Under the pieces are notes generated by a model. That model made no database searches and was not told the DNA's origin. It worked only from the letters and a program-made list of their open reading frames with translations. Below are positions 4,685 through 40,762 of a DNA stretch of 64,000 bases, one piece after another (positions within the stretch are counted from its first letter, which is position 1; every line of letters starts with the position of its first letter). A program made the position numbers and the translations under genes. Source of the DNA: a virus; IMG/VR virus record IMGVR_UViG_3300030098_006058, positions 1 to 64,000 of that record. One strand, 5' to 3'.

Positions 4685-4910
4685 AAAAACTTTAAAAGAA
4701 AAGTATAAATTCGAACCGGTTAAAGGTAACGAAAAAGTATTAACACGAAGAATAGGTGAAGCAGAAACTATAGATGTATTTGGAAGCGCTCTTTGTTATA
4801 GAGGAGAAGTTATGGCTACTCTTGAATGTATGAGTAATGATAGGTTTGGAGAATATTTGGAGAGATTAATTAGAAGTTTAAAAAGAAGAAATGAAATTAA
4901 AAGTAATTAG
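4671..4910 (+). CDS. Hypothetical protein, 79 aa
   Basis: ORF track. Confidence 0.65.
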   Translation: MAITRKTLKEKYKFEPVKGNEKVLTRRIGEAETIDVFGSALCYRGEVMATLECMSNDRFGEYLERLIRSLKRRNEIKSN

Positions 4911-5361
4911 AATTAGCAGTGAATCAGATTCAACATCGGGATTATTATTTGATATTACCGATCCTGATAATAAAAAATTTTTAGCTTATACATTGGAAGA
5001 TGAAAAAAGAAAAGAAAAAGTTATGCATGAAACAAGAGTACCGGCTGGAGAATATCCGGTTGTACTTAGAACAGAAGGTGGGTATCATAATAAATATTCT
5101 AAAAGATTTTCTGACTTTCATGTTGGTATGTTGCATATTATTGATATACCTAATTTTGAGTATATTCTTATTCATTGTGGTAATACCGATGAAGATACTA
5201 GTGGATGCTTACTTGTTGGAGACTCCCAAGAAAATAACCAAGTCAAGAAGGACGGTTTTATAGGAGCATCTACACAAGCATACAGAAGAATATATCCAAA
5301 GATAGCAAAAGCTTTAGAAAATGGAGAAGAAGTAACAATTAAATATGTAGATTATGCGTAA
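4891..5361 (+). CDS. DUF5675-like protein, putative endolysin (L,D-peptidase-like)
   Basis: YTLED...TRVPAGEY...ILIHCGNTDEDTSGCLLVG pattern with a His/Cys pair. Confidence 0.8.
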   Translation: MKLKVIRISSESDSTSGLLFDITDPDNKKFLAYTLEDEKRKEKVMHETRVPAGEYPVVLRTEGGYHNKYSKRFSDFHVGMLHIIDIPNFEYILIHCGNTDEDTSGCLLVGDSQENNQVKKDGFIGASTQAYRRIYPKIAKALENGEEVTIKYVDYA

Positions 5362-5635
5362 TAGAACTGATCAAGAATTATTAGATGAAGCAATGGATAA
5401 TGCTTATAAAGTTGTAATGGGCTTAACTACTGTAGATGATATATTAGATAGTGATAAAGAAGAAGTTGTATTACCTTTTGATATGACACAAGATAATGCA
5501 TATGATGTAACAAAACTTATTGAGTTATTGGTATATTATTATGAAGGTGAAGAATGGTATGAAAGATGTGCAGCTTTAACAAAATTAACAAAGAATGGCA
5601 AAAAGAACGCAGTTTTTATTCGAACAGAAGAGTAA
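5354..5635 (+). CDS. Hypothetical protein, 93 aa
   Basis: ORF track; C-terminal EEWYERCAAL helical hairpin. Confidence 0.7.
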   Translation: MRNRTDQELLDEAMDNAYKVVMGLTTVDDILDSDKEEVVLPFDMTQDNAYDVTKLIELLVYYYEGEEWYERCAALTKLTKNGKKNAVFIRTEE

Positions 5636-5729
5636 AGTAACAAGAAGAGGAGTACATGCTAAAAGCGGTTCTTCTAAAAGTAAAAGTAGTAAAAATTATA
5701 AAAAACCATATAATAGACAAGGAAGATAA
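5595..5729 (+). CDS. Small highly basic protein, 44 aa (not in ORF track)
   Basis: MAKRTQFLFEQKSKVTRRGVHAKSGSSKSKSSKNYKKPYNRQGR; the stop is TAATG-coupled to 5729. Confidence 0.7.
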   Translation: MAKRTQFLFEQKSKVTRRGVHAKSGSSKSKSSKNYKKPYNRQGR

Positions 5730-6775
5730 TGAAAAATTTAATATTAATATTATTATTTTGTTTTAGTTTTGTAAACGGACAAAATAATTTTTTTAAATAC
5801 TCTACCTTTTATACATCGATGTCAATGGGTACATCTATGATAGAAAGGGAAGATTATATAGCAATAGATAAAGGTTATGAGGATGTAACGTGGGTCTCAC
5901 CTTATGACTATAATTTAACAGTAGGTCTACGAAAAATAGCAAGATTTGATTATGAACATAAAGTTAAAACATGGTATTATGGTACTGAAGACAATGTTGC
6001 AGATAATGTTACTATTGGTAACAGTGTTGGTTGGGAGTATCTTTTTAATTATTCATTTATACGGAATCGTGGTGATAAATATACTGAGCAAAATTTCTGG
6101 CTTAGATACCTTGGAAATAGCTACGTCACCAAAATCCAATATACAGATAACCAAAGAGTAGATCTAAAGTTTACATCTCTAGATACTCGTTATCGAATAA
6201 ATAAAGGTAATTGGGATTTTACAATAGGAGCAGTTTTAAGAATACACCCAGCATACGGAATTAATCCTATTGAAGACTTTTGGATACCAGGTGAATCAAC
6301 ATTTCAAGATCTAGCAGAAGATTTTGGTTATGTTCCAGAAATGTGGATTCAAGGTAATTATGTTAATCAGAATTGGTACGATGTTAGTGATGGGGATTCT
6401 ATTCTAATAGCAACATCAAATGATGAATTTTATACTTGGTGGTTTGGTGATGCAGTAGCATCATTTAATGAAAGGGAATTAGAAAAATTAGGTATGCAAA
6501 AAGAACTAAGTGCAGTATTAGGAATAGCATATTATAAATATACTCCTAAGTTTTGGTTACATGCATGGGCTAATATTCTTCCTTATCATCATGGATTAGA
6601 TGATTATTCTTATTCATATGAAGATGCAAAAGATATGATAGAATGGGATTCTGGTATTGTAACGGGTGTTAGACTTAATAAACATTTAGGGCTATTTGTT
6701 GAAGGTACTCATATGAAGTATTGGGGAAAGCCTGTGTTTGATCTTAAGTTTGGTTTTAACTATTTAATATTTTAA
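5729..6775 (+). CDS. Putative outer-membrane beta-barrel protein
   Basis: Sec signal peptide, aromatic-rich amphipathic strands and a BAM-type C-terminus FDLKFGFNYLIF. Confidence 0.7.
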   Translation: MKNLILILLFCFSFVNGQNNFFKYSTFYTSMSMGTSMIEREDYIAIDKGYEDVTWVSPYDYNLTVGLRKIARFDYEHKVKTWYYGTEDNVADNVTIGNSVGWEYLFNYSFIRNRGDKYTEQNFWLRYLGNSYVTKIQYTDNQRVDLKFTSLDTRYRINKGNWDFTIGAVLRIHPAYGINPIEDFWIPGESTFQDLAEDFGYVPEMWIQGNYVNQNWYDVSDGDSILIATSNDEFYTWWFGDAVASFNERELEKLGMQKELSAVLGIAYYKYTPKFWLHAWANILPYHHGLDDYSYSYEDAKDMIEWDSGIVTGVRLNKHLGLFVEGTHMKYWGKPVFDLKFGFNYLIF

Positions 6776-6777
6776 GA

Positions 6778-6963
6778 ATGAATTGGATAAAATTATTAGT
6801 AATAATATTACTAGCAGCAGGATGTTCAACGTTATTTAATCCTGAAATGTATAATCCTAATCCACGACCTGTGGTTGTTGAAGAGGAAGTAAAAGTTGAC
6901 ACAATAAAAATAACTATAAACGGTGTTGAAAAAATTATATTAGACACTTTAAAAACAGATTAA
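6778..6963 (+). CDS. Small lipoprotein
   Basis: Hydrophobic leader with lipobox LAAG-C, then a Pro-rich segment. Confidence 0.75.
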   Translation: MNWIKLLVIILLAAGCSTLFNPEMYNPNPRPVVVEEEVKVDTIKITINGVEKIILDTLKTD

Positions 6964-6965
6964 TA

Positions 6966-7898
6966 ATGAAAAAATTACTACTTATATTATTTGCGTTTAT
7001 TAGCTCATTTGCTGTTGCGCAATTTGGACCCTTAGATGATTATGATTCGGATTATCTTAATTCTAATAACATGTGTGTGATATGTGCACAAGCAGAAGGA
7101 TTTTATTGTGGAGATGATCCAGCAAACTGGACACAATATGCACCAAATGGATGTGTGCAAAATTCATGGATTAATGATGGATGGGAAGATTGTGTAGATG
7201 CCAGCGATGAAAATGGTGCTGTTCCTACACTTATAGAAGATTGTGTTGTTGTTTCTGATTGTGACACAGTTTATGTAGATGTACCTGTTATTGAAATAGA
7301 TACAGTATTTGTAGATGTTCCATTTTATATCTATGAAACTGAATATATATTTGATACTATTGTAGAAACAGAGTATATAACTCAAGTTGTTATAGACACT
7401 GTTATTGATATACAATTAGATACTATATATAATACAGAGTATATAACCCAAATACTTTTTGATACTATAGTAGAGATTGAATATGAAACTATATTTGAAG
7501 AAATATTTGTTACAGATACATTGTGGATGGAAGGAGCACTAGACACTATGTTTATAGATGTAATAGAATATGTAGATGTATTTGTATTTGACACAATAAT
7601 TGAAACAGAAATTGAATATGTTGAGTTTTTTGTAACAGACACAATAATTCAATATGACACTATAGTGAACACAGAATATGTAGAAATATTTGTTGTGGAT
7701 ACAATTATAGAATATGTAGAAATAATTAATACAGAATATATTGATTGTGATACAGGTATGCCATGTAACTCTTCTATTAATGAATTATTAGATAAGTCAA
7801 AAGAAAATGGTTTAATTTATAATATTAAGGGACAAGCAATTAGAGAACCTGAAGGTTTATATATAGAAAATGGTAAAATAAAATATATGATAAAATAA
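6966..7898 (+). CDS. Secreted protein: LDL-receptor-A-like Cys motif, acidic DT(I/V) repeat stalk, T9SS-like C-terminal domain
   Basis: Signal peptide ending AVAQ; CVQNSWINDGWEDCVDASDE; many xDT[IV] repeats; C-terminus LIYNIKGQAIREPEGLYIENGKIKYMIK. Confidence 0.65.
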   Translation: MKKLLLILFAFISSFAVAQFGPLDDYDSDYLNSNNMCVICAQAEGFYCGDDPANWTQYAPNGCVQNSWINDGWEDCVDASDENGAVPTLIEDCVVVSDCDTVYVDVPVIEIDTVFVDVPFYIYETEYIFDTIVETEYITQVVIDTVIDIQLDTIYNTEYITQILFDTIVEIEYETIFEEIFVTDTLWMEGALDTMFIDVIEYVDVFVFDTIIETEIEYVEFFVTDTIIQYDTIVNTEYVEIFVVDTIIEYVEIINTEYIDCDTGMPCNSSINELLDKSKENGLIYNIKGQAIREPEGLYIENGKIKYMIK

Positions 7899-8242
7899 TG
7901 AAAAAAGAATTATCAGAAGATAGTAAATTTCAAATAAGTATAAAAACATTAATAGGAATTGTAGTAGGTGTAGCTACTGTAATCTCTGCATATTTTGGTT
8001 TAATGGGTACTATAAATTCTAAATTTGTAGAACTTGAAGATAAAGTTGAACAAGCTTTAGAAATGCCAAAACCAGGTACAGGAACTTATACTATTGATAT
8101 GGGAGATCCAGCAGCTACAAATACATGGCCTCCAACTCGTATGGAGTTTAATATGAAAGATCAAATGGCCCGTAATCAAATTGATATGCTAATAAAGGAG
8201 ATTGAGGAGATGAAGGAAGAAATTAAAGAATTAAGAAAATGA
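7898..8242 (+). CDS. Single-pass membrane protein with coiled coils
   Basis: TM segment TLIGIVVGVATVISAYFGL; heptad-patterned C-terminus. Confidence 0.75.
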   Translation: MKKELSEDSKFQISIKTLIGIVVGVATVISAYFGLMGTINSKFVELEDKVEQALEMPKPGTGTYTIDMGDPAATNTWPPTRMEFNMKDQMARNQIDMLIKEIEEMKEEIKELRK

Positions 8243-8610
8243 AAAAATTATATTGTCTAATATTATTAATATGTAATATTTGTATAGGACAGGACTTTAT
8301 TGATGAAAATAATTTCAACGAAAAAATCGCTAAAGATATTACAGCTGTAGAATTTTGGGCCGGATGGAATGTTCAAAATGAATTTAAAGAATTAAACAAA
8401 CTGAAAGAGTGTGTAGTATATAGAATAGATGTAACTTCTAATATAGATATTCAAACTAAATACAGTGTTACCGCTATACCAACAATAATTATATTTGATA
8501 ATGGTGTAGAGAAAGAAAGGTTCTTACCTAATATTATGTTTCAACTTGATGCTGATAAGAAAACAGTTCAACATTCTGTTGATACAATAAAGTTAAATAA
8601 ATTTCAATAA
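8239..8610 (+). CDS. Exported thioredoxin-fold protein lacking CxxC
   Basis: Signal peptide; VEFWAGWN in place of the usual DFWAxWCxxC; YSVTAIPTIIIFDNG cis-Pro motif. Confidence 0.75.
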   Translation: MKKLYCLILLICNICIGQDFIDENNFNEKIAKDITAVEFWAGWNVQNEFKELNKLKECVVYRIDVTSNIDIQTKYSVTAIPTIIIFDNGVEKERFLPNIMFQLDADKKTVQHSVDTIKLNKFQ

Positions 8611-8984
8611 TGTATAATTATAATGCAAAATTAGATAGAGTAGTTGACGGTGATACTGTTGACGCTGTTATTGATTTAGGCTTTAATGTCTATATTAAAA
8701 AAAGAATTAGATTAGCAGGTATAAATGCACCTGAATCTAGAACTAGAAATAAAGTAGAAAAGAAGTTAGGAATAGCTGCTAAAGAGAGATTAATAGATAT
8801 ATTAGATGGTGCAGCAAATTGTTTTGAATTAGAATCACAAGAACTTGGTAAATATGGTAGAGTTCTTGGTAGATTACATATAAATAAATTAGCTGGAAAA
8901 GAAACATTAACGCAGGTTTGTGTTAATGATCTCCTTGTAAAAGAGGGACATGCTGTCAAGTATGATGGCGGAAAACGTATATAA
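8610..8984 (+). CDS. Thermonuclease (SNase-like) family nuclease
   Basis: VVDGDT, IRLAGINAPE, KYGRVLG and VNDLLVKEGHA motifs. Confidence 0.9.
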   Translation: MYNYNAKLDRVVDGDTVDAVIDLGFNVYIKKRIRLAGINAPESRTRNKVEKKLGIAAKERLIDILDGAANCFELESQELGKYGRVLGRLHINKLAGKETLTQVCVNDLLVKEGHAVKYDGGKRI

Positions 8985-8998
8985 TTAAAAAATAAATT

Positions 8999-9214
8999 AT
9001 GATGAATATTTTTAAAGATTCCAATGACTGGAACGAAAAATCAATAATAGGTTTTATTGCTTTTGTAATAATGTGTATTGTTATGGTATTAGATCTTTCT
9101 ACTGGATGGTATGGTTATGATTTAGTAATTAACGAATTCGTATATGACTCATTTGTATGGGTTGTATTAGGGTGCTTTGGTATAAGTGGTGTTGAGAAAT
9201 TTGCTAAAAAATAA
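8999..9214 (+). CDS. Putative holin (two TM segments)
   Basis: Two hydrophobic helices and a basic C-terminus (EKFAKK). Confidence 0.55.
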   Translation: MMNIFKDSNDWNEKSIIGFIAFVIMCIVMVLDLSTGWYGYDLVINEFVYDSFVWVVLGCFGISGVEKFAKK

Positions 9215-11223
9215 TGAATCATTTTAGACTACAACCTTCTTTTGTTAATACCAGAGAATTCTCTTGCGAAGCTAAGAATTTTTTAAAGAATGGATATTAT
9301 ACCAATTCTCCTCCGGGTACTTATGCATATAAAGAATATTGGGATGAACAAACTAGAAGATGTTTAGAAGGTTTTGAAGTAGGTGGGGTCCGGATAACTG
9401 GACCTCATTATTTTTATTTAAATTTTACACAAATAAAAGCTACTGTAAAAAAAGGAAAATTGGAAAGAAAGGTTTTAACCTTTCCAAGTTTTCTGGATAT
9501 GGATTATTATTACTTTGATGAGTGCGAATTAGCAAGAGAAAATGGTCAAGGTATGATAGTAGCTAAAGCTCGTCGTAAAGGTTTTTCATACAAAAATGGT
9601 GCCTTATGCGTTCATCAATATAATTTTTTTAGAGATTCTACAAGTATTATTGGTGCATATTTAAATGAATATGGTGGAGCTACAATGGCCATGAGTTTAG
9701 AAATGATTAACTTTATTAATAAACATACAGCATGGGCTAAACGTAGAAATCCAGATCGAAGAGATTTTGTTAAAGCTAGATTTAAAGAAGTATTAGATGG
9801 GAAAGAAGTATGGAATGGATATAATAGTGAAATATTTACTTTAACATTTAAAGATAATTTCTCTGCAGCTATTGGTAAAACAGCTGATCTCATGTTATGG
9901 GAAGAGGCTGGTAAATTTCCTAATCTTATAAATGCATATATGATTACTGCTCCTGTATTTAGGGACGGTAATGTGATGATTGGGATGCCATTGATATTTG
10001 GAACAGGTGGTGATATGGATGGAGGATCAAATGATTTTGCTGAGATGTTTTATAATCCAGATAAATATTGGTTAAGACCATTTGAGAATATATGGGATGA
10101 AGGTGGAGCAGGAACTAATTGTGGATTCTTTATTGATGATATGTGGTACAAACCAGGAAAGGTAACTTTAAAATCAGGTGAAGTTGTAAAGATGGTAGAT
10201 GAAGAAGGTAATTCTAATAGAGATGCTGCAGAAGAGTTTTTAGATCAAGAAAGAAAAATTATTAAAACTACAGATTCTAGAACTACATGGGAGAAATATA
10301 TTACTCAATCTCCAAAGACTCCTAGAGAAGCTTTCTTAAGAAGTAGTGGAAATATATTCCCAACTATTGAATTGAATGCGTGGTTAGGAGAATTGGAAGT
10401 TACCAAAATAGCTCAAGATATGGCTATGATTGGAGAATTATATTGGGAAAAAGATGATATAAAGTGGATGCCTAATATTGAATTAAATCCTATAAATAAA
10501 TTTCCAATTAAAACAAATGATGATAGAACAGGATGTATTGTTATTTGGGAACATCCTTACAAGGACGCTTCGGGTAATATTCCATATGGATTATATATAG
10601 CTGGGACTGACCCTTACGATCAAGATGATTCTACTACTAGTTCATTAGGTAGTACTTTTATTTATAAGACTTTTCAAAAATTTGATAATACTTATAATAT
10701 ACCAGTAGCAGAATATACAGGTAGACCAGATACAGCAAAAGAATATTATGAAAATGTAAGAAAACTTCTTACATATTATAATGCACAAACATTATATGAG
10801 AACAATTTAAAGGGATTAAAAATATATTTTGAACAGAAGAAATGTTTACATTTATTAAAAGAACAACCAAATATATTAAAAGATATTGTTAATAGAACTA
10901 CAGTAAGTAGAGGTTATGGAGTTCATATGAGTGAACCAATTAAAGTTCAATGTGAATTATATCTTAGAGATTGGTTGTTAGAAAAAAGAGCAGATGGAGA
11001 AAAGGGAGATCAATTAAATTTACATACAATTTATTCAATTCCCTTAATACAAGAATTAATAGCATATGATCATAAAGAAGGTAATTTTGACCGTGCAATA
11101 GCATTTATGTTATGTATATTACATTCCCATGAAAACTATAATATTGATTTAGAAGCTAAATTTGACTTTAATATGGGAGATAAATTTTGGCGATCTTCAT
11201 TATTTAAGAAAAGAAAAAGATAA
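9214..11223 (+). CDS. terL: Terminase large subunit
   Basis: Walker A-like KARRKGFS, Walker B-like LWEEAG, motif III FGTGG, nuclease motifs GTDPYD and GNFDR; crAss-type N-terminus. Confidence 0.95.
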   Translation: MNHFRLQPSFVNTREFSCEAKNFLKNGYYTNSPPGTYAYKEYWDEQTRRCLEGFEVGGVRITGPHYFYLNFTQIKATVKKGKLERKVLTFPSFLDMDYYYFDECELARENGQGMIVAKARRKGFSYKNGALCVHQYNFFRDSTSIIGAYLNEYGGATMAMSLEMINFINKHTAWAKRRNPDRRDFVKARFKEVLDGKEVWNGYNSEIFTLTFKDNFSAAIGKTADLMLWEEAGKFPNLINAYMITAPVFRDGNVMIGMPLIFGTGGDMDGGSNDFAEMFYNPDKYWLRPFENIWDEGGAGTNCGFFIDDMWYKPGKVTLKSGEVVKMVDEEGNSNRDAAEEFLDQERKIIKTTDSRTTWEKYITQSPKTPREAFLRSSGNIFPTIELNAWLGELEVTKIAQDMAMIGELYWEKDDIKWMPNIELNPINKFPIKTNDDRTGCIVIWEHPYKDASGNIPYGLYIAGTDPYDQDDSTTSSLGSTFIYKTFQKFDNTYNIPVAEYTGRPDTAKEYYENVRKLLTYYNAQTLYENNLKGLKIYFEQKKCLHLLKEQPNILKDIVNRTTVSRGYGVHMSEPIKVQCELYLRDWLLEKRADGEKGDQLNLHTIYSIPLIQELIAYDHKEGNFDRAIAFMLCILHSHENYNIDLEAKFDFNMGDKFWRSSLFKKRKR

Positions 11224-11228
11224 AAATA

Positions 11229-11259
11229 TTTGGAAATAAGATAAATTTATATATTTTTG
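11229..11259 (+). promoter_or_regulatory. Bacteroidota sigma70-type promoter upstream of portal
   Basis: TTTG at 11229-11232 and TATTTTTG at 11252-11259. Confidence 0.7.
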
Positions 11260-11279
11260 TAAGTTAGAATAATACTATA

Positions 11280-13775
11280 ATGCAGGGATTAAATCAAAAT
11301 AACATATTAGAGGAGCTACCAAAACAGAAAATAGCTAAATCTAAAAAGGGAAAAAAATGGGGAAAAGCTTGTATAGATGAATTAGAAAAAGTTACATATA
11401 GTGACATGTCTTATAATGGACGATCCTCTAGATATAGAAAACAAATTAATTATGATTTGTATAACGGTGTTTTAGATCAGAATGATTTTGAATATGTAGT
11501 CAATCCTTATGGATTTAGTAAAGATGAATTCCCAGCTAACTTACAACATTATGATATAATATCTCCCAAATTACAACTTCTAATGGGGGAAGAAATTAAA
11601 AGACCTTTTAACTTTAGAGTTGTTTCTCATGATCCTGAATCTGTTTCTAAGATGGAAGAGGTGAAGAAAGAAATGATGATGGAATTTCTATATAGTGTAT
11701 TAGTACCACCACAAGTACAACAACAGCAACAACAAGAAATGATGCAGATGCAACAACAGGGAGCATCTGAAGAGGAGATGCAAATGGCACAGCCAAAAAC
11801 ACCTGCTCAAATAGAAAAATACATAGCATACGAATATCAAGATGTTAGAGAAAAACAAGGTCAAAATATTTTAGAATATCTAGTTAAAAATCAAAATATA
11901 GAAAATAAGTTCAATGCAGGATTTAAGGATGCTTTAATCGCAGGAGAAGAAATTTATTGGGTAGGCGAAGTTGCAGGTGAACCTGTAGTAAGAGTATGTA
12001 ATCCTTTAGACGTACGTGTTATATTAGATCCAGACTCACCTTGGATAGAAGATGCTCAATCTGTAGTAGAAGAAAGATGGTTAACATTAGCAACTGTTAT
12101 TGATGAATATCATGAATATTTAACTCCTCAAGAAATAGATAAATTAGAAAAAGGATGGGGAGGTAGAGATAGTTATATGGATAGTAACGGTGTTAATTAT
12201 CCATATTCAGAATTTAATATTGTTAATTATGATGCAAGAGGAACTTTTGATCCAGAGCATATTCGAAGTTATAGACGAGATGGTATGATTCGTGTTATAC
12301 AATGCGAATGGAAATCTATGCGTAAAGTAGGATTTATAACTTATAAAGATGAGATAGGATTTGAACAACAAGATATTGTAGATGAAATTTTTGAAGTACC
12401 AGAAGAAGCAGAAAAAAATAAAGATGGAGAATGGGTATTTGGAGGAATGCGTTTAAAATGGCATTGGATAAGTGAATATTGGGAAGGTACAAAAATAGCT
12501 GAAGATATTTATTTAAATATTAAGCCTAAAGAAAACCAAAGAAGAGATATGGATAATCCTAGTAATGTCAAATCTGGATATGTAGGATATATTTATAATG
12601 AAAGAAATTCAGAATCTATTTCCTTGATAGATCGTATGAAACCATATCAGTATTTGTATAATATTATTTATTATCGAACTGAATTAGCTTTAGCAAAATC
12701 AAAAGGTAAAGTGGCTTTAATGGATATTTCACAAATACCTTCATCAGAAGGATGGGACGTTTCTAAGTGGATGTACTATCTAGAAGCTGTAGGTGTGATG
12801 TTTATTAACTCCAGAGAGGAGGGGAATAGATCCCAGCAAGCCCCGCAATTTAATCAATTCCAATCTATTGATCTTTCTATGGGTAATTATATTAATACTC
12901 ATGTCCAACTATTAGATCAAATCAAAAATGAGATTGGAGAACTCTCTGGAGTTTCTAGACAAAGACAAGGACAGGTTCAAACTTCTGAACTTGTAGGAAA
13001 TACTGAACGAGCTGTTGTTCAGTCTTCTCATATTACAGAATATTGGTTTTATAATCATAGTGAAGTTAAAAGAAAAGTATTACAAGCATTAATCGATGTA
13101 GCAAAAATGGCTTGGAAGAGTGGTAAGAAAATTCAATATATTATGGATGACATGAGTCGAGTATTTCTTAATCTAGAAACTGATGATTTTTCTAGTACTA
13201 ATTATGGAGTATTTGTTTCTAATTCTGGTAAAGATGATAGAGCAGTAGATTCAATGAGACAATTAGCTCAACAAGCTCTTCAAGCAGGAGTAACTAATTT
13301 CTCAGATGTAGCAAGTATTATGCAGTCAGAATCATTAGGTGATATGAAACGAAAACTAGTAGATGCAGAAAATAAAATGCAACAAAAACAAGCTGAAGAT
13401 GGTCAAAGACAACAACAGATGCAGCAACAAGCAGCTCAATTAGCGCAGCAAACAGAACAAATGAAGCAAGATAGAGAAGATGCACGTGCTCAATTAGAAG
13501 CAGATACTAAGATTAGAGTGGCAGAGATTAATGCTGAAGCTAGGTTAGCTGATCAAGATGATAATAATGATGGTTATATTGATATACAAAATCGAGATAA
13601 TGATGTTAAATTAGAATCAGATAAAGAAAAAATAAATTTACAACGAGAAAAACAACAAGCAGAACTTGGATTGAAACAGCAAGAAATGGAAGAAAAGAAA
13701 AGAGCTAACCAAGCTAATGAGCAAATAAAAAGAACTGCTGCAAATAAGAAACCTAATGCCGGAGGATCCAAATAA
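11280..13775 (+). CDS. Portal protein (crAss/P22-like)
   Basis: Follows TerL; LPKQK, NYDLYNG, LMGEEIKRPF and GVSRQRQGQV motifs; Q-rich coiled-coil barrel. Confidence 0.92.
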   Translation: MQGLNQNNILEELPKQKIAKSKKGKKWGKACIDELEKVTYSDMSYNGRSSRYRKQINYDLYNGVLDQNDFEYVVNPYGFSKDEFPANLQHYDIISPKLQLLMGEEIKRPFNFRVVSHDPESVSKMEEVKKEMMMEFLYSVLVPPQVQQQQQQEMMQMQQQGASEEEMQMAQPKTPAQIEKYIAYEYQDVREKQGQNILEYLVKNQNIENKFNAGFKDALIAGEEIYWVGEVAGEPVVRVCNPLDVRVILDPDSPWIEDAQSVVEERWLTLATVIDEYHEYLTPQEIDKLEKGWGGRDSYMDSNGVNYPYSEFNIVNYDARGTFDPEHIRSYRRDGMIRVIQCEWKSMRKVGFITYKDEIGFEQQDIVDEIFEVPEEAEKNKDGEWVFGGMRLKWHWISEYWEGTKIAEDIYLNIKPKENQRRDMDNPSNVKSGYVGYIYNERNSESISLIDRMKPYQYLYNIIYYRTELALAKSKGKVALMDISQIPSSEGWDVSKWMYYLEAVGVMFINSREEGNRSQQAPQFNQFQSIDLSMGNYINTHVQLLDQIKNEIGELSGVSRQRQGQVQTSELVGNTERAVVQSSHITEYWFYNHSEVKRKVLQALIDVAKMAWKSGKKIQYIMDDMSRVFLNLETDDFSSTNYGVFVSNSGKDDRAVDSMRQLAQQALQAGVTNFSDVASIMQSESLGDMKRKLVDAENKMQQKQAEDGQRQQQMQQQAAQLAQQTEQMKQDREDARAQLEADTKIRVAEINAEARLADQDDNNDGYIDIQNRDNDVKLESDKEKINLQREKQQAELGLKQQEMEEKKRANQANEQIKRTAANKKPNAGGSK

Positions 13776-16218
13776 AAAGATAAATCTAAATTTACCTCAA
13801 TTTAAATCTAAGAAAAATAGTAGATTATTTTTTATGGGTGAGCGTGGGAATAGACATGGAGGAATACATGAGGAAACTTTTATGGGTGCAAGATGGACAA
13901 CAGATCTTCCTATATCTGATCGTGTATCTTTTTCTCCAACTGTAACAGCAGGAAAGGTTAATGTGGACATACCTCCTATTCGTCATGCTCATGTTCCTGG
14001 TGAAATTAATAAATTTAGATTTCCTATTTTAGGTGGGGGTATAAAAATAAAATTAGGTAAAAAATATGGAGGTGATAATATAAGTTCTAATAAAGCTGCT
14101 AAAATTTTAGATCATGGTTATATTAGAAATAAACCTCTAACATTTAAACAAAGGGCTTTCTTTGGTTCTAAGCTTAATCGTGCATATGGAGGATTAATTA
14201 AAAAATATGAAAATGGTGGAGACATAAATACTCAAATTCCTTTAAATATTCAACCACAAGATAAACTAATAAAACCTAAAGATATTAAAATGAGAGGTAG
14301 TAGTAAATATACTATTGATTCAGATTATTATTATAGGAATAGAAAAAATGCAAAAATTATTAAACCTGTTCAAAATTTTTTAATACAACAAGGTTTTTTA
14401 TCAGAAGGTGATAATGATGGATTTTGGGGAACTCAAACAGAAGGAGCTTTACAGGATTATATTACAGATCAACATATATCTAATTTTGAATGGGGAGAAA
14501 ATTTTACTCCTTCTTCTGACTTTCTTAGAAAGAAAGTATTTACTGAAAGTGGGGGATATTCTGATGTAAAATCTTCAGCGGGGGCTTTAGGATTAATGCA
14601 ATTTATGCCAAAGAATGTTAAAGAATTTCAAAAAGATGGAAGATATTTTGATGAAGTTAGAACAGGATGGTCTGCTTCAAATAATGCGGATGCTATTTTA
14701 GGCTCTCAATTATATATAAGAGATTTAGCAGAAAATTATGGAATCATAACTCCAAATATGAATCAAAAAACAAAAGAAGCATTTTTAAATATAGCTTATA
14801 ATTGGAGTCCTGATGGTGCTATGTATTTAAGAGATCATCTTAAAACATTAACATATCCATCTGGAGAGAAAAAAGGACAGAAAGTTGATATTAATGATGT
14901 TAATTATTGGTTACCATATATAGAAAAAAATAGAGGTTTTGAAGGGGGATGGAGATATTTAAAAGATAAAGCAGGTGAACCTATATATAAAAAACATTGG
15001 TGGACAGCTGAAGAAATAAAAGCAGAAAAAAATCCGGAAAAGAAGAAAAAGATGAGAGGAGGATGGAAATGGACTAAACAATATGAGTTGGATGATAAAG
15101 GAGAAAAAATTCCTGCTTCATGGTATGTACCCACAGAGACTACAAATTATGCTAGAATATCTCATGGTATGGCAGATCCAAGTAATGAGAAAGTTACAAA
15201 AAAATTATCTGATTTAAAAGATTGGAATTATGAATTAAGCGACTTAATAAGAAATCCTATATATAAGAAAGAATGGGGAGGATATAGTCAAAGCCATCTT
15301 TCAAGACTTTTAGAACAAGGAGGTGATCCAGGTAAAACTGAACCGCCAGAAAATTCATATCCTGAATTAACTGGTAAAAATTTAGAAAGTTTTAATGAGA
15401 TAACAAAATGGGAACCTGATGAGGTGAAAGATATATTATATAAAACTTGGCTAAATACAGGAAAACCTAAGTTATCGACTGAAGGGTTGTTTGGGATGTT
15501 CCCGGGTAGTTATAATGTATACACGAATAAGATTAGAGCTGCTGATACTGAAACTCTTGTAGAAGAATTAAAACATGCATATCAATTTAGAGGAGATAAA
15601 AGAACAGGTGATCAAGACAATTCACTTAAAAGTAAAATAAAATCTAAGCTATTTCATCACGGTCGAGGACCTTTTCAACTTGTAGGCACATTACTGGGAG
15701 CACCTTATCAACTAAGTAGAGTTCTGGGTTTAAACAAGAACTTCAGAAAAAATCTTTATAATCCTTATAAAAAAACGGAAGGAGTAGAAGGGATTCATGA
15801 TCAATTCGGTGCTTATGGTCATGCGTGGGGACACGGATTAGAAAGTAATGTAAATAGAGCAAGAAATAAAGCTATATATCGTGAAATTAAAGAAGCTCAA
15901 GAAAACGAAGATTGGGAGAAAGAACTTAACTTAAAAACCAGACTTTATTCACTATCAAATCCCATAGATTCTGCTTCGTTTCGCTTAAATAGTACCCCTA
16001 ACCTTCAGGAACGGACTGATAATTCTCATCTTAACCCCAGAAAAAATTGGTTAGAGGTGGATAATTTTACTACATGGGATCCTGAAAATAAAGAACCGTT
16101 GGGAATAGCAAAAGAGATGTTTGAAGATTCATATGAAAATAAATTATATAATTTTTTATATAATAGAAATACAATAGATGATCTTAATCTATATCAAGAT
16201 TCAAAATATTGGGAATAA
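13756..16218 (+). CDS. Multidomain virion protein with peptidoglycan-binding and lytic transglycosylase domains
   Basis: VQNFL...DGFWGTQTEGALQDY (PG-binding); TES...SSAGALGLMQFMP...AYN...ETTNY (SLT motifs); repeated xxGG motifs. Confidence 0.8.
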   Translation: MPEDPNKKINLNLPQFKSKKNSRLFFMGERGNRHGGIHEETFMGARWTTDLPISDRVSFSPTVTAGKVNVDIPPIRHAHVPGEINKFRFPILGGGIKIKLGKKYGGDNISSNKAAKILDHGYIRNKPLTFKQRAFFGSKLNRAYGGLIKKYENGGDINTQIPLNIQPQDKLIKPKDIKMRGSSKYTIDSDYYYRNRKNAKIIKPVQNFLIQQGFLSEGDNDGFWGTQTEGALQDYITDQHISNFEWGENFTPSSDFLRKKVFTESGGYSDVKSSAGALGLMQFMPKNVKEFQKDGRYFDEVRTGWSASNNADAILGSQLYIRDLAENYGIITPNMNQKTKEAFLNIAYNWSPDGAMYLRDHLKTLTYPSGEKKGQKVDINDVNYWLPYIEKNRGFEGGWRYLKDKAGEPIYKKHWWTAEEIKAEKNPEKKKKMRGGWKWTKQYELDDKGEKIPASWYVPTETTNYARISHGMADPSNEKVTKKLSDLKDWNYELSDLIRNPIYKKEWGGYSQSHLSRLLEQGGDPGKTEPPENSYPELTGKNLESFNEITKWEPDEVKDILYKTWLNTGKPKLSTEGLFGMFPGSYNVYTNKIRAADTETLVEELKHAYQFRGDKRTGDQDNSLKSKIKSKLFHHGRGPFQLVGTLLGAPYQLSRVLGLNKNFRKNLYNPYKKTEGVEGIHDQFGAYGHAWGHGLESNVNRARNKAIYREIKEAQENEDWEKELNLKTRLYSLSNPIDSASFRLNSTPNLQERTDNSHLNPRKNWLEVDNFTTWDPENKEPLGIAKEMFEDSYENKLYNFLYNRNTIDDLNLYQDSKYWE

Positions 16219-24266: not shown

Positions 24267-27200
24267 ATGGCAGCGAAAGATAAATTTAAACAACTCGTAT
24301 ACGGTAAGAATATAAGACAGGATAATAGAACTTATCCTCCTACTATATCAACTGTTAATACAGCATTTGATCCTCAAGCTGGATGTGCATCAATTTCTGC
24401 AGATGCGGCTTATAATCCAGGAACTGCTTATGCAGCGGGTGATGTTTTATTTTATACTGATGGTGCTACAGTTTATAATTCTGCTAATGCAGTTATGGGT
24501 GGAGGTACTGTTGGAGGATTAGGCGGAGATGGAAAAAATGCTCAAAGTACTTTTATTGTTAAAAGTCCTACTACTCATTATTGGTGGATTTTCTCTCATG
24601 ATGTAGCTAATAATAAAGTATGGGTTGCTACAGTTAAAATGGATGATAATGGGGGATTAGGATCTGTATCTCAAAAAGCAACTTCTCAAACATTCGCAGG
24701 TTCTGCAACTGATAGGATGGCTCCATATTATGATGGAACTGCAAGTCAGTATGGTTTTATTATACATTTAACAGGTAGTGATCGTTGGGTATCTTATAGA
24801 GTAAATGGATTATCCGGTCAGAATCCTACATTTGCTGCTGCAGTAACTACTTCTATAGGTACATCTTATAATAATAATGATGCAGCTAATCATGCAACTG
24901 TTAAATTCAATAAAGATAATACAAAATTTGCAACAGTTTATCAAGCAAATATAGGTACTGCAGGTTCACCTGTTACTGGAGCTGTTGTTGAGGTATTTGA
25001 TTTTAATACAAGTACACAAGTACCATCTAATTTTGGTCAATTTATTCTTCCTATTAATGATGCTGGTGCGATAGCTATCGGAGGAGGTGCTCAAAGACTT
25101 AAAGGATATGATTTAGAATGGGATTTTGATACTGCAAGTCCAACTTTATATGCACCTGTTTATGATCCCATAAATGGAATGGGTATTAGATATTATGTAT
25201 TAAATGCTTCTAATGTTCCTTCTAGTAGTGGAGATGTAGCTAAGTCTTTCCAAAGTACTGGAACATGGGGAGATAGAACTATTTGGTCTTTATTTAGAGA
25301 TCCATATGACGATAAAATTTATGTAGCAACTCCAAATAAAATTGGTAGTACAGGAGGATATAGTGCAAATTATAATGATACTTATGGTATAACACAGGTT
25401 TCTGCTATAACAAATTCAAGTAGTCCTGCTGGTACTGCAGAGTTTGTAGATTCAGTAGTAACTACAGGTACTAAATTAGTTAGAAAAGGTTTAGGTACAA
25501 GAGCAATAAGAGATGAAGCATCTGCATCATCTGGTAAATATAATTTAACTCCATGTGATACATTTAAAGAATATGTATTAGATTCAGATGGATTTATTTG
25601 GAGTATAGACGGAGCACTTGATGCTACGAAAATTGCTGATGTAAGTAGTATTACAAATAGAAAAAATATAGCGGTTCAAAAGGAAACTGGATTTATATAT
25701 TTATTAGCGGGTACAGGAGCTACTCAAGCTATCTATAAAGTAGACCCTATTTCAGGATCTGTAGCTTCAGGAGTAGCAATTTCTGGAGCAGGTATTACAG
25801 GTTTTAATAGTATTTGTAGTAAAGATGGAGATGCTCTTAAATTATATGCAGTTATAGAAATAGCTGGTCCGCATTATAATTATGCAGAAATAGTAATTGC
25901 TACAGGAGTAGCTACTAAAACTGCAGGTAATACATCTCATGTTGCAGTAGATACTGCATATATAGGTACTACATTATATATGGCATCTGGAGATGATCTA
26001 TATAAAAATACAGGACCTGGTACATGGGCTACAGTAGGAGCTAATGGTCTAAGTACAAACTATGAAGGTTTAGCTACAGATGATACAACTTTATATGGTT
26101 ATATAGCTGGAAAGAGATATACTATTAATACAACTAGTGGAGCAGCAACATTAGGAAAAAGTATAACAACAAATGGTGGAACAGCTACTTGGAATTATAC
26201 AATTACAGGTGCTGGCCAAATTAATTATGCAGGAACTCTTAATCCTCTTATTACTTCTGATGGTACTATTCCTCCATTTGTAGGAGATATAATTAGAGTT
26301 GAAAACTTTGCAGGATGTTGGACTGTTAGTACAGCTTCTTCAGGAACTGCTCAAGTAGTTGGGAATGTTTTACAAAGTTATTCAGATTGTGATTCTTGTA
26401 CTTTAGTTGATAGTAATTTAGAGTGTAAATTACTTGTTGATTGTTGTACAACAGGGGCCGGAATACCTCAAAAAGTAGTTGGAACTACAGATGATTCTAC
26501 AATAGTAGTTGGTAATGTATATGAAATTACAGGTAATGCTACAACTTCAGATCAATTAAATAGATGTGTTAAAGCTGTTTCTCCTGATTCTGATTTATAT
26601 GTTACTTTTTATAATGGAGAAGTAGGTAGTATAGATTTAACTACCGGTATTATTACACAGAATACAGGTCTTCCAAATACTATGGGTATTACTTTTGATA
26701 GTAATGGAAATGGTTTAACATTACAAGAAGATGGAAAAATTAGTTTAGTTAAACCTTCTGGTTTTGCTAATGCTATAGAAGTTAATGCTAGTGCAGTTTC
26801 CATGAATAAAGCTATTACTGTAGCGGATGATGGTACTATATATGCAGCAGGAGATGTTTCTGGTGTAACAAAATTACAAAGTATAACTTATGATAATAAT
26901 GCTGATACCATAACTTTTGGTTCTACATTAGTTAATGCTAGTGTTCTTCTTACAGGAGATATGGCTGTAGGTCCTGATACATTATTATATTGTACAGGAG
27001 ATGCGGCTCCTTCTGGTGCATTAGATCCAAATGATCTATTTACTTTAGATACAACTTCAGCTACTAATACTACTATTGCAAGTTTAACTACTACATTAAG
27101 TTTAACAACTCATCAAATAGTTAAAGGTATATCTTTTGTTAAAGATGTATGTAAAGTATTAGTTTGGGATTCTGCGTCTAATGGTTTAACATTATTTGAT

Positions 27201-30200
27201 GTTAATCATCTTAGTGGAGTTTTAATAAGTAGTTTATCTTTACAACATCCAGATGGTAGTTCTGCTTTTGAAATTCCTCCTACAAGTATAGCTTATAATA
27301 ATCCTTGTAAATACCATACTGAAAGTTCATTTAAAGTAACTTCTTATGGAAATTGTTCTGATTGTGCTGCATCTGATACATCAAAAAAATGTAAATATAA
27401 ATTAATTAACTGTAAAAACGGTTTAGTTAAATATACTGAAGTAGATTTATCAGCAGATGTTGGTAAAATAATCTCTTTAAATGAAGTAGGATTATATAAA
27501 TGTTATACTGTAGAACATACATATTCTGATTCTGTTACAGCTGATGTAACTAAATTAGCAGGTTATACAGATTGTACTGATTGTGAAAATAGTGAAAATT
27601 CTATTTTTAGATTATTGAAATGTACTGATGAAACTTCAGATCCAAAATATACAACTGAAGATTTAACTCCAGGTATATCTGGATATGTTGGTAAAGTAGC
27701 TATTCTAGAAGGAGAATATTATGGAAGAATAGTAGATAGTTTAGGAACTTCTGCTCATTCATTATTAACTACTGCAGTAACTATTGTTAATCATACTTCA
27801 AAATGTAGTGATGCTAATTTCTATACTCGAATAACTGCATGCAATGATTCAACAAGAATTATTGATATTGACTATACCTTAAGTCCAAGTATTCATTCTT
27901 ATATAGGTACTTCTAAAGGTTTAGCTATAAATAATCTAGGAAATAAAGAAGATGAAGTTTGTTGGACAGCAGCTTCTTGGATTGAAGGTCCAACTCCTTA
28001 TGTATATCAAAATATTACTGTAACTGCTTTTGCTGATGATTGTGATACTTGTGTTCAAACTGCATTAGCACCACCACCATCACAGATTGCTTTATCATCT
28101 TGTTGTAATACACCATCTGGTGATTATGCTCCTGATTTTTATTTTGCAGTTACTGCTGGAGTTGATATAAATTTAGATGATGATGGATTAATTGTTGAAG
28201 CAGATATTACAGATCCAACTACTGGTATACTTTATAATGGATGTTGGAATGTAGACGAATTACCTGGATTGATGGATCCTTCTTTTTTAACTGATTGGGA
28301 TTATATTAATGTATTAGCTTCTACTGTTGTAGGGGGAAGTCCAGGAACTAGTTGTCATGGATGTACATATTGGTGTACAGCTACAGCAGGATGTGAAGTA
28401 TTAGCTTGTGTTTCATCTGCACAGGATTATTTTGTAGAGTGTGGAGGATTTAGTCAGGCCGAACAAGGTGCTGGTGTATTAGCATTTGATGAAGATCCTC
28501 TTAGAGAATGTTTTAGATTATGTAATAATAAATTTAATGGTGTACACGGAATAAACTGGTATTGGGGTAATGGAGCAGGATTGAAGTGGGAATTATTAGG
28601 TACTCCTTATGCTACATTTGATGGAAATAGTCAAATGGGTATGGGGATTATAGGAATGCCAGGTGATTATGGATATACTAGATTTGGAAGTGCTGTACAC
28701 TGTGTAGCTGAAAATATCACTATAGGAACTAAAGATTATGTTAAGGGAGATATTTTATTTTATACCGACGGTCATCATGTGTTTAATTCTAATCATGTAT
28801 TCATGGACAATGGTACAAATTTGGCTGGAGGAGATATGGTGAGTCCAATTTCAGATATTAATTCTGCTTATGATAATTATAGAATGGCTACACAACAGGC
28901 TATTATTGTACCAGACCCTCAAGGAGGATTTATAGGTAATAGTACAAAGACTCATGCTTGGTATTATATATTTTACCAATCAACAGGAGATGGACCTTTT
29001 TATTCGGCAAAAGTATTAATGGATACTTTTAATGGATTAGGACTTGTAGCTCCTGATACTATTGACTATAAAATACATGATAATTCTACAGAAAGATTAT
29101 GTGTAAGTACTGGAAGAACTGATGATGCAGAAGAGGTTTATTGGGTAATAGAAGTACAACCATGGTATGATATTCCAAATCCAGATTTTGGAACACCATT
29201 AGCAGAACCTAATGCAACTATACGTGTTCATAAAGTTAGTGCTATTGGATTTGAAGTAGATTATACAATATTTGAATTAGATCAAAATAATATTCAGGGG
29301 AAATTAGATAATTTCCAACAAATGTCTGTATGTGCAAGAATAAAAATGTCACCAGATAATAAATGGATTGTTCTAACAGGTTGGCAAGGAGGAGCGAATT
29401 GGACTCAATTATTAAGATTTGATGAAACTACTGGAGAGATAGGTCCTACTTATGGAGAAATCTGGACAGATGCTCCAAATTTAGGGTGTGTTCCTGTTAC
29501 TACAGGTTGTAATACTAATATTGCGACTAGTTTTATTCCAACAATGACTGCTGTTGAATTTGATGCAGGAAGTAATTATTTATATATGATAAGGAGCGGA
29601 TCAATCTATCCGCCAGAAGTTCCATCGGGAAGTTGTGAAGGTCAAAATACAATGCAACCTGCTTTATTAAGAAGATCTCTTGATGGTGTAACTGGAGAAA
29701 TAGGAGAAATAGAAATAGTAGAAAATAATATACAGTTTTTACCAGGAATCAATAATATTCCTGCTATGGATACTGAAGGACAAGGAGAGGGTTGTGCAAA
29801 TCATGCAGCTATTCCAGTAGATATGGTTATAGGACCTGATTGGAATTTATATTATGGTATGTTTAAAGGTAAATTAACTGGAAGTCAGAATACAGGTTTA
29901 AGTTCTTGGAAACAAGGAAGTTTTATAGGACAGGATTTTAATGATGGCGAATTTAGTACATATGATAAATATATAGGTAGAGTTGTTAATCCTCATAATG
30001 ACTATCCAATAGTTCTAAGTCCTAATGAAGATCAGTGGGATCAAACTTATGTAAGTTTGGAAAATCGAAGAATGGCAACAGGATTCCCAGTATACTTAAA
30101 GAAAAAATGTGCTCTACCTAGTGAAGATGATACTGTGTATGATGTGGGTGTAGCAGCTACATATGAAGCATGTGATGAAAGTACTGATTGTGGAATAGTT

Positions 30201-40010: not shown

Positions 40011-40762
40011 TTTATAAATATGTATCAGTATATGAAATAATAGAAGGAGTATATAGAGATTCAGGTATTAAAGAAGAACTTGATATTTGGGACGTAATTG
40101 AATGGGCCGGAGAAGCTTTAGAGTTAATTGGTGCTGGGATGACCTATGTAGAATTAATTGGAGAGATTTGTGTCCATGAACATCGAGCACAATTACCATG
40201 TAATTTTCACAGCTTAGAACAAATTTCATATAAAGGTATACCTTTACCATTATGCAGTGGTACATTTGGTGCTATTTCAACTACACCTACAAATACAACA
40301 ACAAATTATATTGATGGGGAAGAAGTTAATGAAAATAACTTTCCTATGACAGATACGATGACTGGGAGTCGTGGAAATTGTTATTATATAAATGATAATT
40401 TTGTAGTTACATCTTTTGAAGAGGGTTGTATTTTAATGACTTTTAAAGGTATAAATGTTGATAAGGAAGGGTATCCTATGATGCCAGATCATATCAGTTA
40501 TAAGAAAGCTGTTAAATCATATATACAAACAATGATAGATCGTATGTGGTGGAGAAAAGGGTCATTACCGGAAGCTGTTTATAGAGATAGTCAAAGAGAT
40601 TGGGAATGGTATGTTAAACAAGCACGTGGTGCGGTAGCTATGCCAAATCTTGATGCTATGGAGAATATTAAGAATCAATGGGTTAAATTGAAACCTAACA
40701 TGAATTCTCATCAAACTTTCTTTACTGATTTAGCAAGTCCAGAACGAAGGAAACTTAAATAA
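40007..40762 (+). CDS. Ring (tail tubular-like) protein
   Basis: VIEWAGEALELIG, LPCNF and DKEGYPMMPD motifs; directly before the muzzle gene. Confidence 0.75.
   Translation: MIYKYVSVYEIIEGVYRDSGIKEELDIWDVIEWAGEALELIGAGMTYVELIGEICVHEHRAQLPCNFHSLEQISYKGIPLPLCSGTFGAISTTPTNTTTNYIDGEEVNENNFPMTDTMTGSRGNCYYINDNFVVTSFEEGCILMTFKGINVDKEGYPMMPDHISYKKAVKSYIQTMIDRMWWRKGSLPEAVYRDSQRDWEWYVKQARGAVAMPNLDAMENIKNQWVKLKPNMNSHQTFFTDLASPERRKLK

Follow-up and report, generated by a model that had tools for sequence, protein, structure and literature searches.

The gene at 6966..7898 (+ strand, stop codon included) of IMG/VR virus record IMGVR_UViG_3300030098_006058 encodes an exported protein which combines a signal peptide, a Cys-rich head resembling the LDLa module, a long acidic stalk and a conserved C-terminal tail. 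The DNA analysed, called here the window, is a stretch of 64,000 nucleotides corresponding to the first 64 kb of this 89,108-bp record, which is rated 100% complete. The open reading frame (ORF) starts with ATG, codes for 310 amino acids (aa) and is supported both by a family of related proteins and by tblastn. In related phages the gene of this polypeptide, referred to as the stalked protein, is accompanied by a gene for a predicted outer-membrane β-barrel, and in a larger sister clade its place is taken by proteins with a type IX secretion system (T9SS) sorting domain. Our preferred reading, held tentatively and at somewhat less than an even chance, is that a conserved cassette of phage envelope genes has the stalked protein as its exported cargo, which a host-type tag takes to the cell surface and which has the barrel as its partner.

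On the evidence of its marker genes the virus is a crAss-like phage: the window carries genes for the Crassvirus major capsid protein (PF23898, E 7e-146), the large terminase (phrog_6681), the portal and the tail ring protein. A preliminary description made from the letters alone had taken the DNA for that of a phage, which the capsid, terminase and portal bear out. Nearly all genes of the window lie on the + strand, and the G+C content is about 30%. The stalked-protein gene is located just upstream of the terminase and portal genes. Its product belongs to a family of 1257 proteins at E<=0.01, with lengths of 246-342 aa and many members from Tara samples; tblastn confirmed 230 of the 252 matched viral stretches. 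Judged by these comparisons, the gene is real and widely conserved in marine crAss-like phages. Described phages gave no counterpart: megablast of positions 5000-12000 against the INPHARED phages returned only one 81-nt match, a size expected by chance, tblastn of the stalked protein against the same phages returned no match, and no PHROGs family was matched by the protein. The source annotations of ten family and mosaic proteins read 'hypothetical protein' or were missing.

The N-terminus of the stalked protein consists of MKK, a hydrophobic core and the sequence AVA followed by Gln. The sole 19-aa hydrophobic window of the protein falls in residues 1-24 (Kyte-Doolittle 1.99), and of 20 aligned relatives at least 90% have retained Q19. 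A Sec-type signal peptide is predicted at aa 1-18 (6966..7019, + strand) with cleavage before Gln19, in keeping with the Bacteroidetes 'Q rule' for signal cleavage that passages of PMC10367356 describe for phage proteins. The preliminary description had proposed a secreted protein with a signal peptide ending in Q and with an LDLa-like head on a repeat stalk. The hydrophobic window and the conservation of Q19 agree with the former, and sequence features show that the protein is exported and has a head-on-stalk layout.

The head (aa 37-99; 7074..7262, + strand) is a divergent LDLa-like domain with a 14-aa insert. Of the nine invariant Cys of the protein it contains seven (C37, C40, C48, C63, C76, C93 and C99). 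The putative acidic Ca-cage core CVQNSWINDGWEDCVDASDE (aa 63-82; 7152..7211, + strand) matched model positions 14-35 of 37 of PF00057 with E 4.2e-4 and 20.9 bits, under the curated cut-off of 24.1. When the head was compared with PDB sequences by phmmer, 25 matches were obtained at E<=1. LDLa-module receptors accounted for 24 of them, the best being VLDLR (E 5e-4), and the 25th was an antibody chain (E 0.99). Because 24 of the 25 PDB matches were LDLa receptors and the Pfam score stayed below the cut-off, the likeness is regarded as beyond chance yet sub-threshold. The preliminary description had seen the C-terminal half of the module at 7152-7211 and suggested a check with Ldl_recept_a; the model matches exactly there, if with a score short of the cut-off, and the N-terminal half is present too, as C40-x5-F-x-C48 followed by the 14-residue insert.

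No relative departs from N70, D71, W73, D75, C76, D78, D81 and E82 of the core, while at least 90% of them have W68. The cage residues align to VLDLR modules, and D71, W73, D75, D78, D81 and E82 occupy what we take to be the positions of the Ca ligands in LDLa modules. Canonical LDLa modules have six Cys in a set spacing, which form three disulfides. The phage head shares with them the C-x5-F-x-C start and the acidic cage W-x-x-D-G-x-x-D-C-x-D-x-S-D-E, but it does not have the canonical six-Cys spacing: the insert lies between Cys two and three, the invariant Asn (N70) stands in place of the fourth, and the sixth is displaced, the first Cys after E82 being 10 residues on. Besides its low Pfam score, it also differs in where it is found, namely in bacteriophage and in Bacteroidota surface proteins.

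The head is followed by an acidic DT/TEY stalk of variable length (aa 100-259; 7263..7742, + strand), delimited by composition and by the alignment of relatives. The acidic DT repeat stretch of the preliminary description is thus a stalk of 160 aa with 39 Asp plus Glu and no Lys or Arg; the entire segment aa 20-259 is without Lys or Arg. The stalk is bracketed by C93-x5-C99 and C261-x5-C267. Indels among the relatives fall mainly in the stalk, whose length ranges from about 100 to 190 aa. Within it Tandem Repeats Finder detected only a 12-bp, 2.4-copy array at 7588-7616, and since no DNA tandem array of note is left, the repeats are probably old and diverged. The AlphaFold2 model of the stalked protein (20-sequence alignment) had a mean pLDDT of 39, and about 22 in the stalk. 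Neither the VIA fold search (best Z 2.3; RXFP2 LDLa module Z 2.0) nor Foldseek (best E 2.8; megalin/VLDLR LDLa rows) found anything significant with this model. A lead to DUF6383, which came from a Bacteroidota cluster of the ESM Atlas (rank 16, score 0.81, 24% DUF6383, 15% Por_Secre_tail), was dropped when PF19910 failed to match the phage and elsewhere gave nothing above threshold but only weaker matches.

The C-terminal 51 residues (aa 260-310; 7743..7895, + strand) form a tail, defined by alignment and hhalign, which comprises a C-x5-C motif, a predicted helix and the consensus YN..GQ...G.YIENGK.KY. The segment YNIKGQ...GLYIENGK, to which the preliminary description had drawn attention as resembling short T9SS sorting domains, is present at aa 285-304 and conserved in the relatives. 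According to PMC10202324 and the title of PMC4804311, the type-A C-terminal domain (CTD) of T9SS cargo carries conserved motifs A-E on a β-sandwich of about 70-80 aa. The profile of 251 distinct tails was compared with that of 51 type-A CTDs by hhalign, both alignments being built from sequences gathered in this analysis and not from curated seeds. The comparison gave Prob 36.8 and P 3.6e-4; the columns aligned with confidence, 13 in number, lay on the YN..GQ.I strand. The score of 23.0 was not reached by any of 60 column shuffles (maximum 18.9), and the reversed profile scored 9.2. In the relaxed alignment the two modules were collinear, LPC pairing with YPNP and G.YI with sG.Y, and they ended together, with a gap of about 20 residues. 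(A smaller comparison of 18 tails with 8 CTDs had given Prob 5% and was replaced by the larger alignments.) The best match of the tail profile among 177,635 PDB sequences was a chain named 'Por secretion system C-terminal sorting domain', at a non-significant E of 0.31. One protein with an intermediate tail, encoded at locus L167, matched both the tail profile (E 4.9e-4) and PF18962 (E 0.12).

The stalked protein resembles type-A cargo (PF18962/TIGR04183) also in its plan. It has a Sec signal and a conserved module at the extreme C-terminus behind a conserved signal-like N-terminus, as in CTD cargo. Its head domain occurs in real CTD cargos, and it fills the cassette slot which in sister phages holds such cargos (both described below). 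The weak collinear likeness of the tail covers LPC/YPNP, YN..GQ, G.Y and the terminal K. In contrast to the type-A CTD, the tail is always joined to an acidic stalk.

Head and tail were found to occur separately in other proteins. A profile search of 1.84 billion representatives yielded 170 proteins at E<=1e-3, and 150 listed proteins of this search were classified with local hidden Markov models (HMMs). The head alone was present in 67 and the tail alone in 61, while 8 had head and tail, 6 had the head plus a type-A CTD, 1 had a CTD only and 7 had none of these. Pfam searches with 33 mosaic proteins located the head inside seven large proteins with real Por_Secre_tail (PF18962) CTDs (P0141, P0147, P0197, P0206, P0227, P0229 and P0234), six of which matched Ldl_recept_a and five Dockerin_1. 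The tail always stood at the extreme C-terminus of varied proteins. Together with the stalk it terminates proteins that start with a signal peptide and have a head of the Laminin_G_3, DUF285, trypsin, thyroglobulin-1 or SprB-repeat kind, and at locus L084 it follows a weakly LRR-like head, for which all Pfam matches were sub-threshold.

Cellular stalk-and-tail proteins were detected at three loci in a one-genome-per-species scan, all in Flavobacteriales/Bacteroidetes metagenome or single-cell assemblies. The ORFs around the gene in L084, judged by eye from their translations, look like lipB, lysS, rpiB, an M28 peptidase gene and an aldehyde dehydrogenase gene, a housekeeping context which is taken to be plainly cellular. 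The three carrier assemblies G001, G002 and G003 have exactly one stalk-and-tail protein each, together with 36, 40 and 25 matches of PF18962, respectively, and one SprA each, so that these carriers have the T9SS core. The comparisons show that each of the two modules, head and tail, also occurs in exported proteins from marine Flavobacteriales which possess a T9SS.

A second C-terminal tag, of about 45 aa and of the form ..IDILGR....GF.L.IYDDG...KKY.IK, ends P0145 and P0201, two head-bearing relatives of the stalked protein, as well as the product of a neighbour gene in L083. This short tag had 35, 18, 37 and 26 matches in G001, G002, G003 and G089, respectively, and none in the phage. Assemblies rich in it are Flavobacteriales of 1-1.5 Mb, and L083:1516-1653 and L337-L366 are examples of the tag. 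The tag lay at most 4 residues from the ORF end in 42 of 49 matches, and 19 of the 20 ORFs with a visible N-terminus had a Sec-like peptide ending in FGQ or FSQ. Such a multi-copy end-piece on unrelated exported proteins resembles a sorting signal. None of the short-tag sites was among the matches of PF18962, TIGR04183 or NF033708; because these models miss it, the tag may be an undescribed sorting signal of marine Flavobacteriales, the likely host lineage. The phage tail aligned better with the short tag than with the type-A CTD: hhalign, again with sequences gathered in this analysis instead of curated seeds, gave Prob 54.4 and P 1.3e-4 over 41 columns (47, nearly the full tail, in relaxed mode). 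None of 100 shuffles reached the score (maximum 17.2 versus 24.0), and the reversed control gave 10.3.

The predicted outer-membrane β-barrel, OMP348 (5729..6775, + strand), was recognized by its AlphaFold2 fold and by adjacency. Cassette counts given here refer to 80 loci found with the stalked protein and, separately, to 80 loci of the sister clade. The OMP348 gene was present in 79 of the 80 loci found with the stalked protein. When loci were collected with OMP348 instead, 78 of 80 had a head-bearing ORF downstream, 77 of these with the tail, and the two exceptions end 67 and 4 nt past the barrel gene. The stalked protein and OMP348 are strictly paired. In some relatives (L170, L206, L211, L215 and others) 0.5-1.5 kb of extra DNA lies between the two genes.

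OMP348 has a signal peptide and a C-terminal end reading ..NYLIF. Its sequence matched no family and no PDB chain. The AlphaFold2 model (35-sequence alignment; pLDDT 70, pTM 0.70) contains a 24-aa internal helix at 231-254 and was matched by 12-strand outer-membrane barrels: Tsx (Z 11.9), NanC (11.1), EstA (10.9), KdgM (10.6), NalP (10.0) and FapF (9.0; Foldseek E 4.7e-4). In the ESM Atlas the nearest named clusters were outer-membrane barrels including autotransporters, at 0.93-0.94. On the predicted model these fold neighbours are generic and no family is singled out. Clusters of type-B cargo genes with genes of PorP/SprF outer-membrane barrels, for which a role as anchors has been proposed, are described in passages of PMC10202324. 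The stalked-protein gene is similar in being clustered with an outer-membrane barrel gene whose product could anchor the cargo. It differs from the type-B arrangement in that the tail has no PF13585/TIGR04131 match and that OMP348, which looks 12-stranded and generic, has no PorP/SprF match. Thus, neither the CTD model nor the partner barrel model of type B was found, and only the gene clustering is alike.

A related cassette was encountered on a 43-kb phage contig binned in a bacterial genome assembly (contig 32 of G193, locus L252). Its phage genes encode DnaB, ribonucleotide reductase, QueC/QueD/QueE-like proteins, GTP cyclohydrolase, a MazG-like pyrophosphatase and DNA polymerase. At L252:9586-15183 a 993-aa PF18962 protein (E 3e-13) is followed by a barrel, a transmembrane (TM) coiled-coil protein, a thioredoxin-fold protein and an endolysin (PG_binding_1 + Amidase_2). 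With the sister barrel as query, at least 535 viral stretches were confirmed among the 602 matches listed, and 80 loci of these (L253-L332) were kept for counting. A large cargo was encoded in 72 of the 80, in 58 of the loci with its end at most 350 nt before the barrel. The TM coiled-coil and the thioredoxin-fold gene were each present in 69, a holin-like gene in 33 and an endolysin gene in 20, and six loci had a small stalk-and-tail protein without the LDLa head. Pfam searches with 30 complete sister cargos detected PF18962 above cut-off in 28, and the other two show a CTD-like end ..FFPNPT... These matches show that the cargo slot of the sister clade holds true type-A CTD proteins.

The order of the conserved sister cassette is holin-like gene, type-A CTD cargo, outer-membrane barrel, TM coiled-coil, thioredoxin-like gene, endolysin. 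It was seen on large marine phage contigs of up to about 170 kb, with cargos of 700-1400 aa. In these cargos the CTD is immediately preceded by a common Cys/Trp-rich module (..VIDVD.YCC...WD..C....Y.YC..), and two of them had weak AMPK1_CBM matches.

According to the preferred reading of the stalked protein as surface-bound cargo, its tail would act after Sec export as a host-type C-terminal sorting or anchoring tag, belonging to a class of short tags only remotely related to the type-A CTD. With this tag the protein would reach the outside of the outer membrane, the host T9SS being the most likely route. OMP348 could serve there as the outer-membrane partner or anchor of the cargo, a role suggested by the parallel with type-B cargos and the PorP/SprF genes that cluster with theirs. 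The stalk would hold the Ca-cage head off the surface of the infected cell, where the head might bind a cationic ligand; the candidate purposes are to remodel the surface, to mask receptors or to promote adhesion at a late stage of infection.

A number of observations weigh against this reading. None of the type A, B and C CTD models (PF18962, TIGR04183, TIGR04131/PF13585, and NF033708 of the ChiA type) gave a match at E<=10, whether with the complete protein or with its last 52 aa, and the whole 89-kb phage record had zero matches of PF18962, TIGR04183 and NF033708. The search with TIGR04183/PF18962 by which the preliminary description had hoped to recognize a T9SS-like C-terminus was thus negative, and what stands of that claim is the remote collinear likeness to type-A CTDs. 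All similarities of the tail lie below accepted thresholds. A type-A CTD has about 20 residues more than the tail with its 51 aa. In the low-confidence AlphaFold2 model it has a helix at 271-281 and a hairpin at 298-307 (pLDDT 58-68), which would make it a helix plus hairpin rather than a seven-strand sandwich. The short tag itself had no likeness to type-A CTDs (Prob 0.8). Among 401 genomes of the order Flavobacteriales a strong stalk-and-tail match was found in four, always single, and because there is one copy per carrier genome, as against 25-40 CTDs, stalk and tail are unlike a general signal.

Further adverse points concern the barrel. PorV was a mid-table fold match of OMP348 (Z 7.8), and no PorP/SprF or PorV signature was detected in OMP348 at E<=10. 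The barrel was not found in G001-G003 with a single-protein query. A barrel profile matched in 2 of the 401 genomes and was absent from 399; one of the two matches (L249) has a cellular-looking context and the other is the phage contig of G193. Finally, L332 of the sister clade encodes a 201-aa protein (7832-8437) in which a lipoprotein N-terminus like that of lipo61, a small protein encoded in the window, is joined to stalk and tail, and for this protein a periplasmic tether fits better than T9SS cargo. The idea of T9SS export is kept alive by the weak type-A likeness, the PDB CTD chain, the short-tag alignment and the CTD cargos of the sister clade. The T9SS reading of the preliminary description is therefore partly supported, and such export is plausible, if unproven.

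The other genes of the cassette have to be considered with respect to lysis. Immediately before the stalked-protein gene lies lipo61 (6778..6963, + strand), which codes for 61 aa with a Pro-rich start and a hydrophobic, lipoprotein-like N-terminus (..LLAAGC) that does not match a strict lipobox regular expression. Homologues were present in 5 of the 80 loci and in 4 of the 80 sister loci. Because lipo61 ends in DT-type motifs like those of the stalk and L332 joins both parts, a past fusion or fission between the lipo61 and stalked-protein genes is suggested. Downstream, TMcc114 (7898..8242, + strand; 114 aa) has, by hydrophobicity, an N-terminal TM segment (window aa 11-39) and a charged helical C-terminus. 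Its only database match was a PHROG family without known function, and no meaningful match was found among PDB sequences. TrxL123 (8239..8610, + strand) is a predicted exported thioredoxin-fold protein (PF00085 E 2.6e-9, signal-like N-terminus) without CxxC. As WAGWNVQN stands where CxxC is expected (FNAGWNSAN in the sister-clade homologue), TrxL123 looks redox-dead. Both TMcc114 and TrxL123 were encoded in 70 of the 80 loci and in 69 of the 80 sister loci, and the thioredoxin-fold gene was always paired with the TM coiled-coil gene. A 71-aa holin-like protein with two hydrophobic segments (aa 11-39 and 47-65) is encoded at 8999..9214 (+ strand; 43/80 loci, 33/80 sister loci). A DUF5675 protein (4891..5361, + strand; PF18925 E 8e-25), present in 33 of the 80 loci, is a candidate peptidoglycan peptidase (lysin); DUF5675 is grouped with C82 peptidases among candidate lysins in passages of bioRxiv 10.64898/2026.04.11.717860. 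No Amidase_2 was found in the phage record.

Since the cassette sits beside lysis genes, a role in lysis fits as well, and this too weighs against the surface-cargo reading. In a two-component spanin a periplasmic coiled-coil protein of the inner membrane acts with an outer-membrane lipoprotein, and the genes lie beside those of holin and endolysin. The window block has likewise a putative TM coiled-coil protein, whose layout we take to be that of an i-spanin, together with a holin-like protein, a candidate lysin and a small protein resembling a lipoprotein. The stalked protein, staying in the periplasm, could form with TMcc114 in the inner membrane and the barrel in the outer membrane a three-part spanin-like bridge, with the stalk as spacer, which would help to break the outer membrane at lysis. 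This is consistent with the neighbouring DUF5675 and two-TM holin-like genes in the window and with the sister clade, where 20 of the 80 loci have an endolysin after the thioredoxin-like gene and 33 have the holin-like gene. Moreover, lipo61 and the lipobox-stalk-tail protein of L332 resemble o-spanin-type tethers. However, the PHROG scans matched none of the cassette proteins to a spanin family, and the core of the cassette, an integral outer-membrane barrel with a thioredoxin-fold protein and a large exported cargo, has no counterpart in known spanins. A stalk varying between about 100 and 190 aa would be odd for a fixed periplasmic span, the 700-1400-aa T9SS cargos in the sister slot leave the periplasm, and the cellular stalk-and-tail proteins have enzyme or adhesin heads and housekeeping contexts without a cassette. 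Overall we regard a lysis bridge as unlikely, although it deserves attention.

The strict pairing of the genes could also mean that export is independent of T9SS and that OMP348 is a type-V/FapF-like channel which threads or anchors the unfolded repeat protein. EstA, NalP and FapF among its fold neighbours, the internal helix of the model and the autotransporter clusters of the ESM Atlas would agree with such a channel. Nevertheless, the porins Tsx, NanC and KdgM (Z 10.6-11.9) match the barrel as well or better, and the neighbour of the sister barrel has a T9SS CTD already and needs no private channel. In addition, the seven Cys of the head, which are probably disulfide-bonded, would disfavour passage through a 12-strand pore, and no such barrel was found with the cellular stalk-and-tail proteins. 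We consider a private export channel quite improbable.

Scant credence is given to another periplasmic role, e.g. as cation buffer, decoy or chaperone-bound factor, with the tail as a folding or oligomerisation unit. The helix-plus-hairpin model of the tail, the C-x5-C motifs at both stalk ends and the co-conserved exported thioredoxin-fold protein that looks redox-dead could be accommodated by it, and so could a foldon-fusion row in Foldseek (E 9.6, non-significant). That row was the sole trace of a likeness between the tail and the T4 fibritin foldon, an idea which was set aside. A periplasmic role is opposed by the nearest relatives of the tail: these are end-tags which occur in many copies on exported proteins that are otherwise unrelated, a pattern typical of a sorting signal. 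A virion fibre with a spurious signal peptide, which the head-stalk-tail layout and the position upstream of terminase and portal might recall, was rejected as very improbable in view of the conserved Q-rule signal, the Cys-rich head, the exported or membrane proteins encoded next to it, the signal peptides of the cellular homologues and the lack of a match to any PHROG structural family.

The wider significance depends on how far the surface-cargo reading can be extended. In its broadest form it would state that at least two clades of marine Bacteroidota phages carry a conserved envelope machine (tblastn confirmed about 790 viral stretches) that consists of an outer-membrane β-barrel, a TM coiled-coil protein and a thioredoxin-fold protein that is redox-dead, and that receives variable host-tagged cargo displayed on, or used to breach, the outer membrane of the infected cell; and that stalk plus tail and the tag of about 45 aa are new classes of Bacteroidota sorting signals, which escape the type A, B and C models and have been copied by phages. 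Taken jointly, these statements are rather doubtful. Phage-encoded type-A cargo of T9SS is known for one cryoconite phage ('Cryophage'), which the authors, in a passage of PMC7468147, term a unique occurrence. No paper on the cassette, on stalk plus tail or on the short tag was found with the terms and in the library searched. Here phage-encoded cargo seems to be a widespread and organised theme, with a cargo gene next to those of a private barrel and two small envelope proteins, beside lysis genes, on hundreds of contigs of marine phages, and the stalked cargo gene hints that such phages place proteins of their own on infected cells. If the short tails are sorting signals, current predictions of T9SS secretomes overlook dozens of proteins in each genome of the abundant marine Flavobacteriales with small genomes, and it would be evident that phages borrow the signal. 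Should the cassette act in lysis instead, it would be a candidate for the outer-membrane lysis step in Bacteroidota phages. Either way a defined, testable set of genes results.

A few other features of the window may be mentioned. Inside the envelope block, positions 8610-8984 encode a staphylococcal-nuclease-like protein without a signal peptide, homologues of which were found near the cassette in 17 of the 80 loci and in 11 of the 80 sister loci. After the portal gene, an 820-aa protein is encoded at 13756-16218. It has an SLT transglycosylase match and a weak PG_binding_1 match, and is probably a virion-borne lysin rather than a lysis endolysin. Giant ORFs, a common feature of crAss-like phages, are located at 24267-34949 (3560 aa), 40762-46248 (1828 aa) and 48890-53167 (1425 aa), and a fourth (53177-64000), of at least 3608 aa, continues past the end of the window. 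A tRNA-Met (CAT) gene at 2538-2610 overlaps the 3' end of the ORF at 2001-2552.

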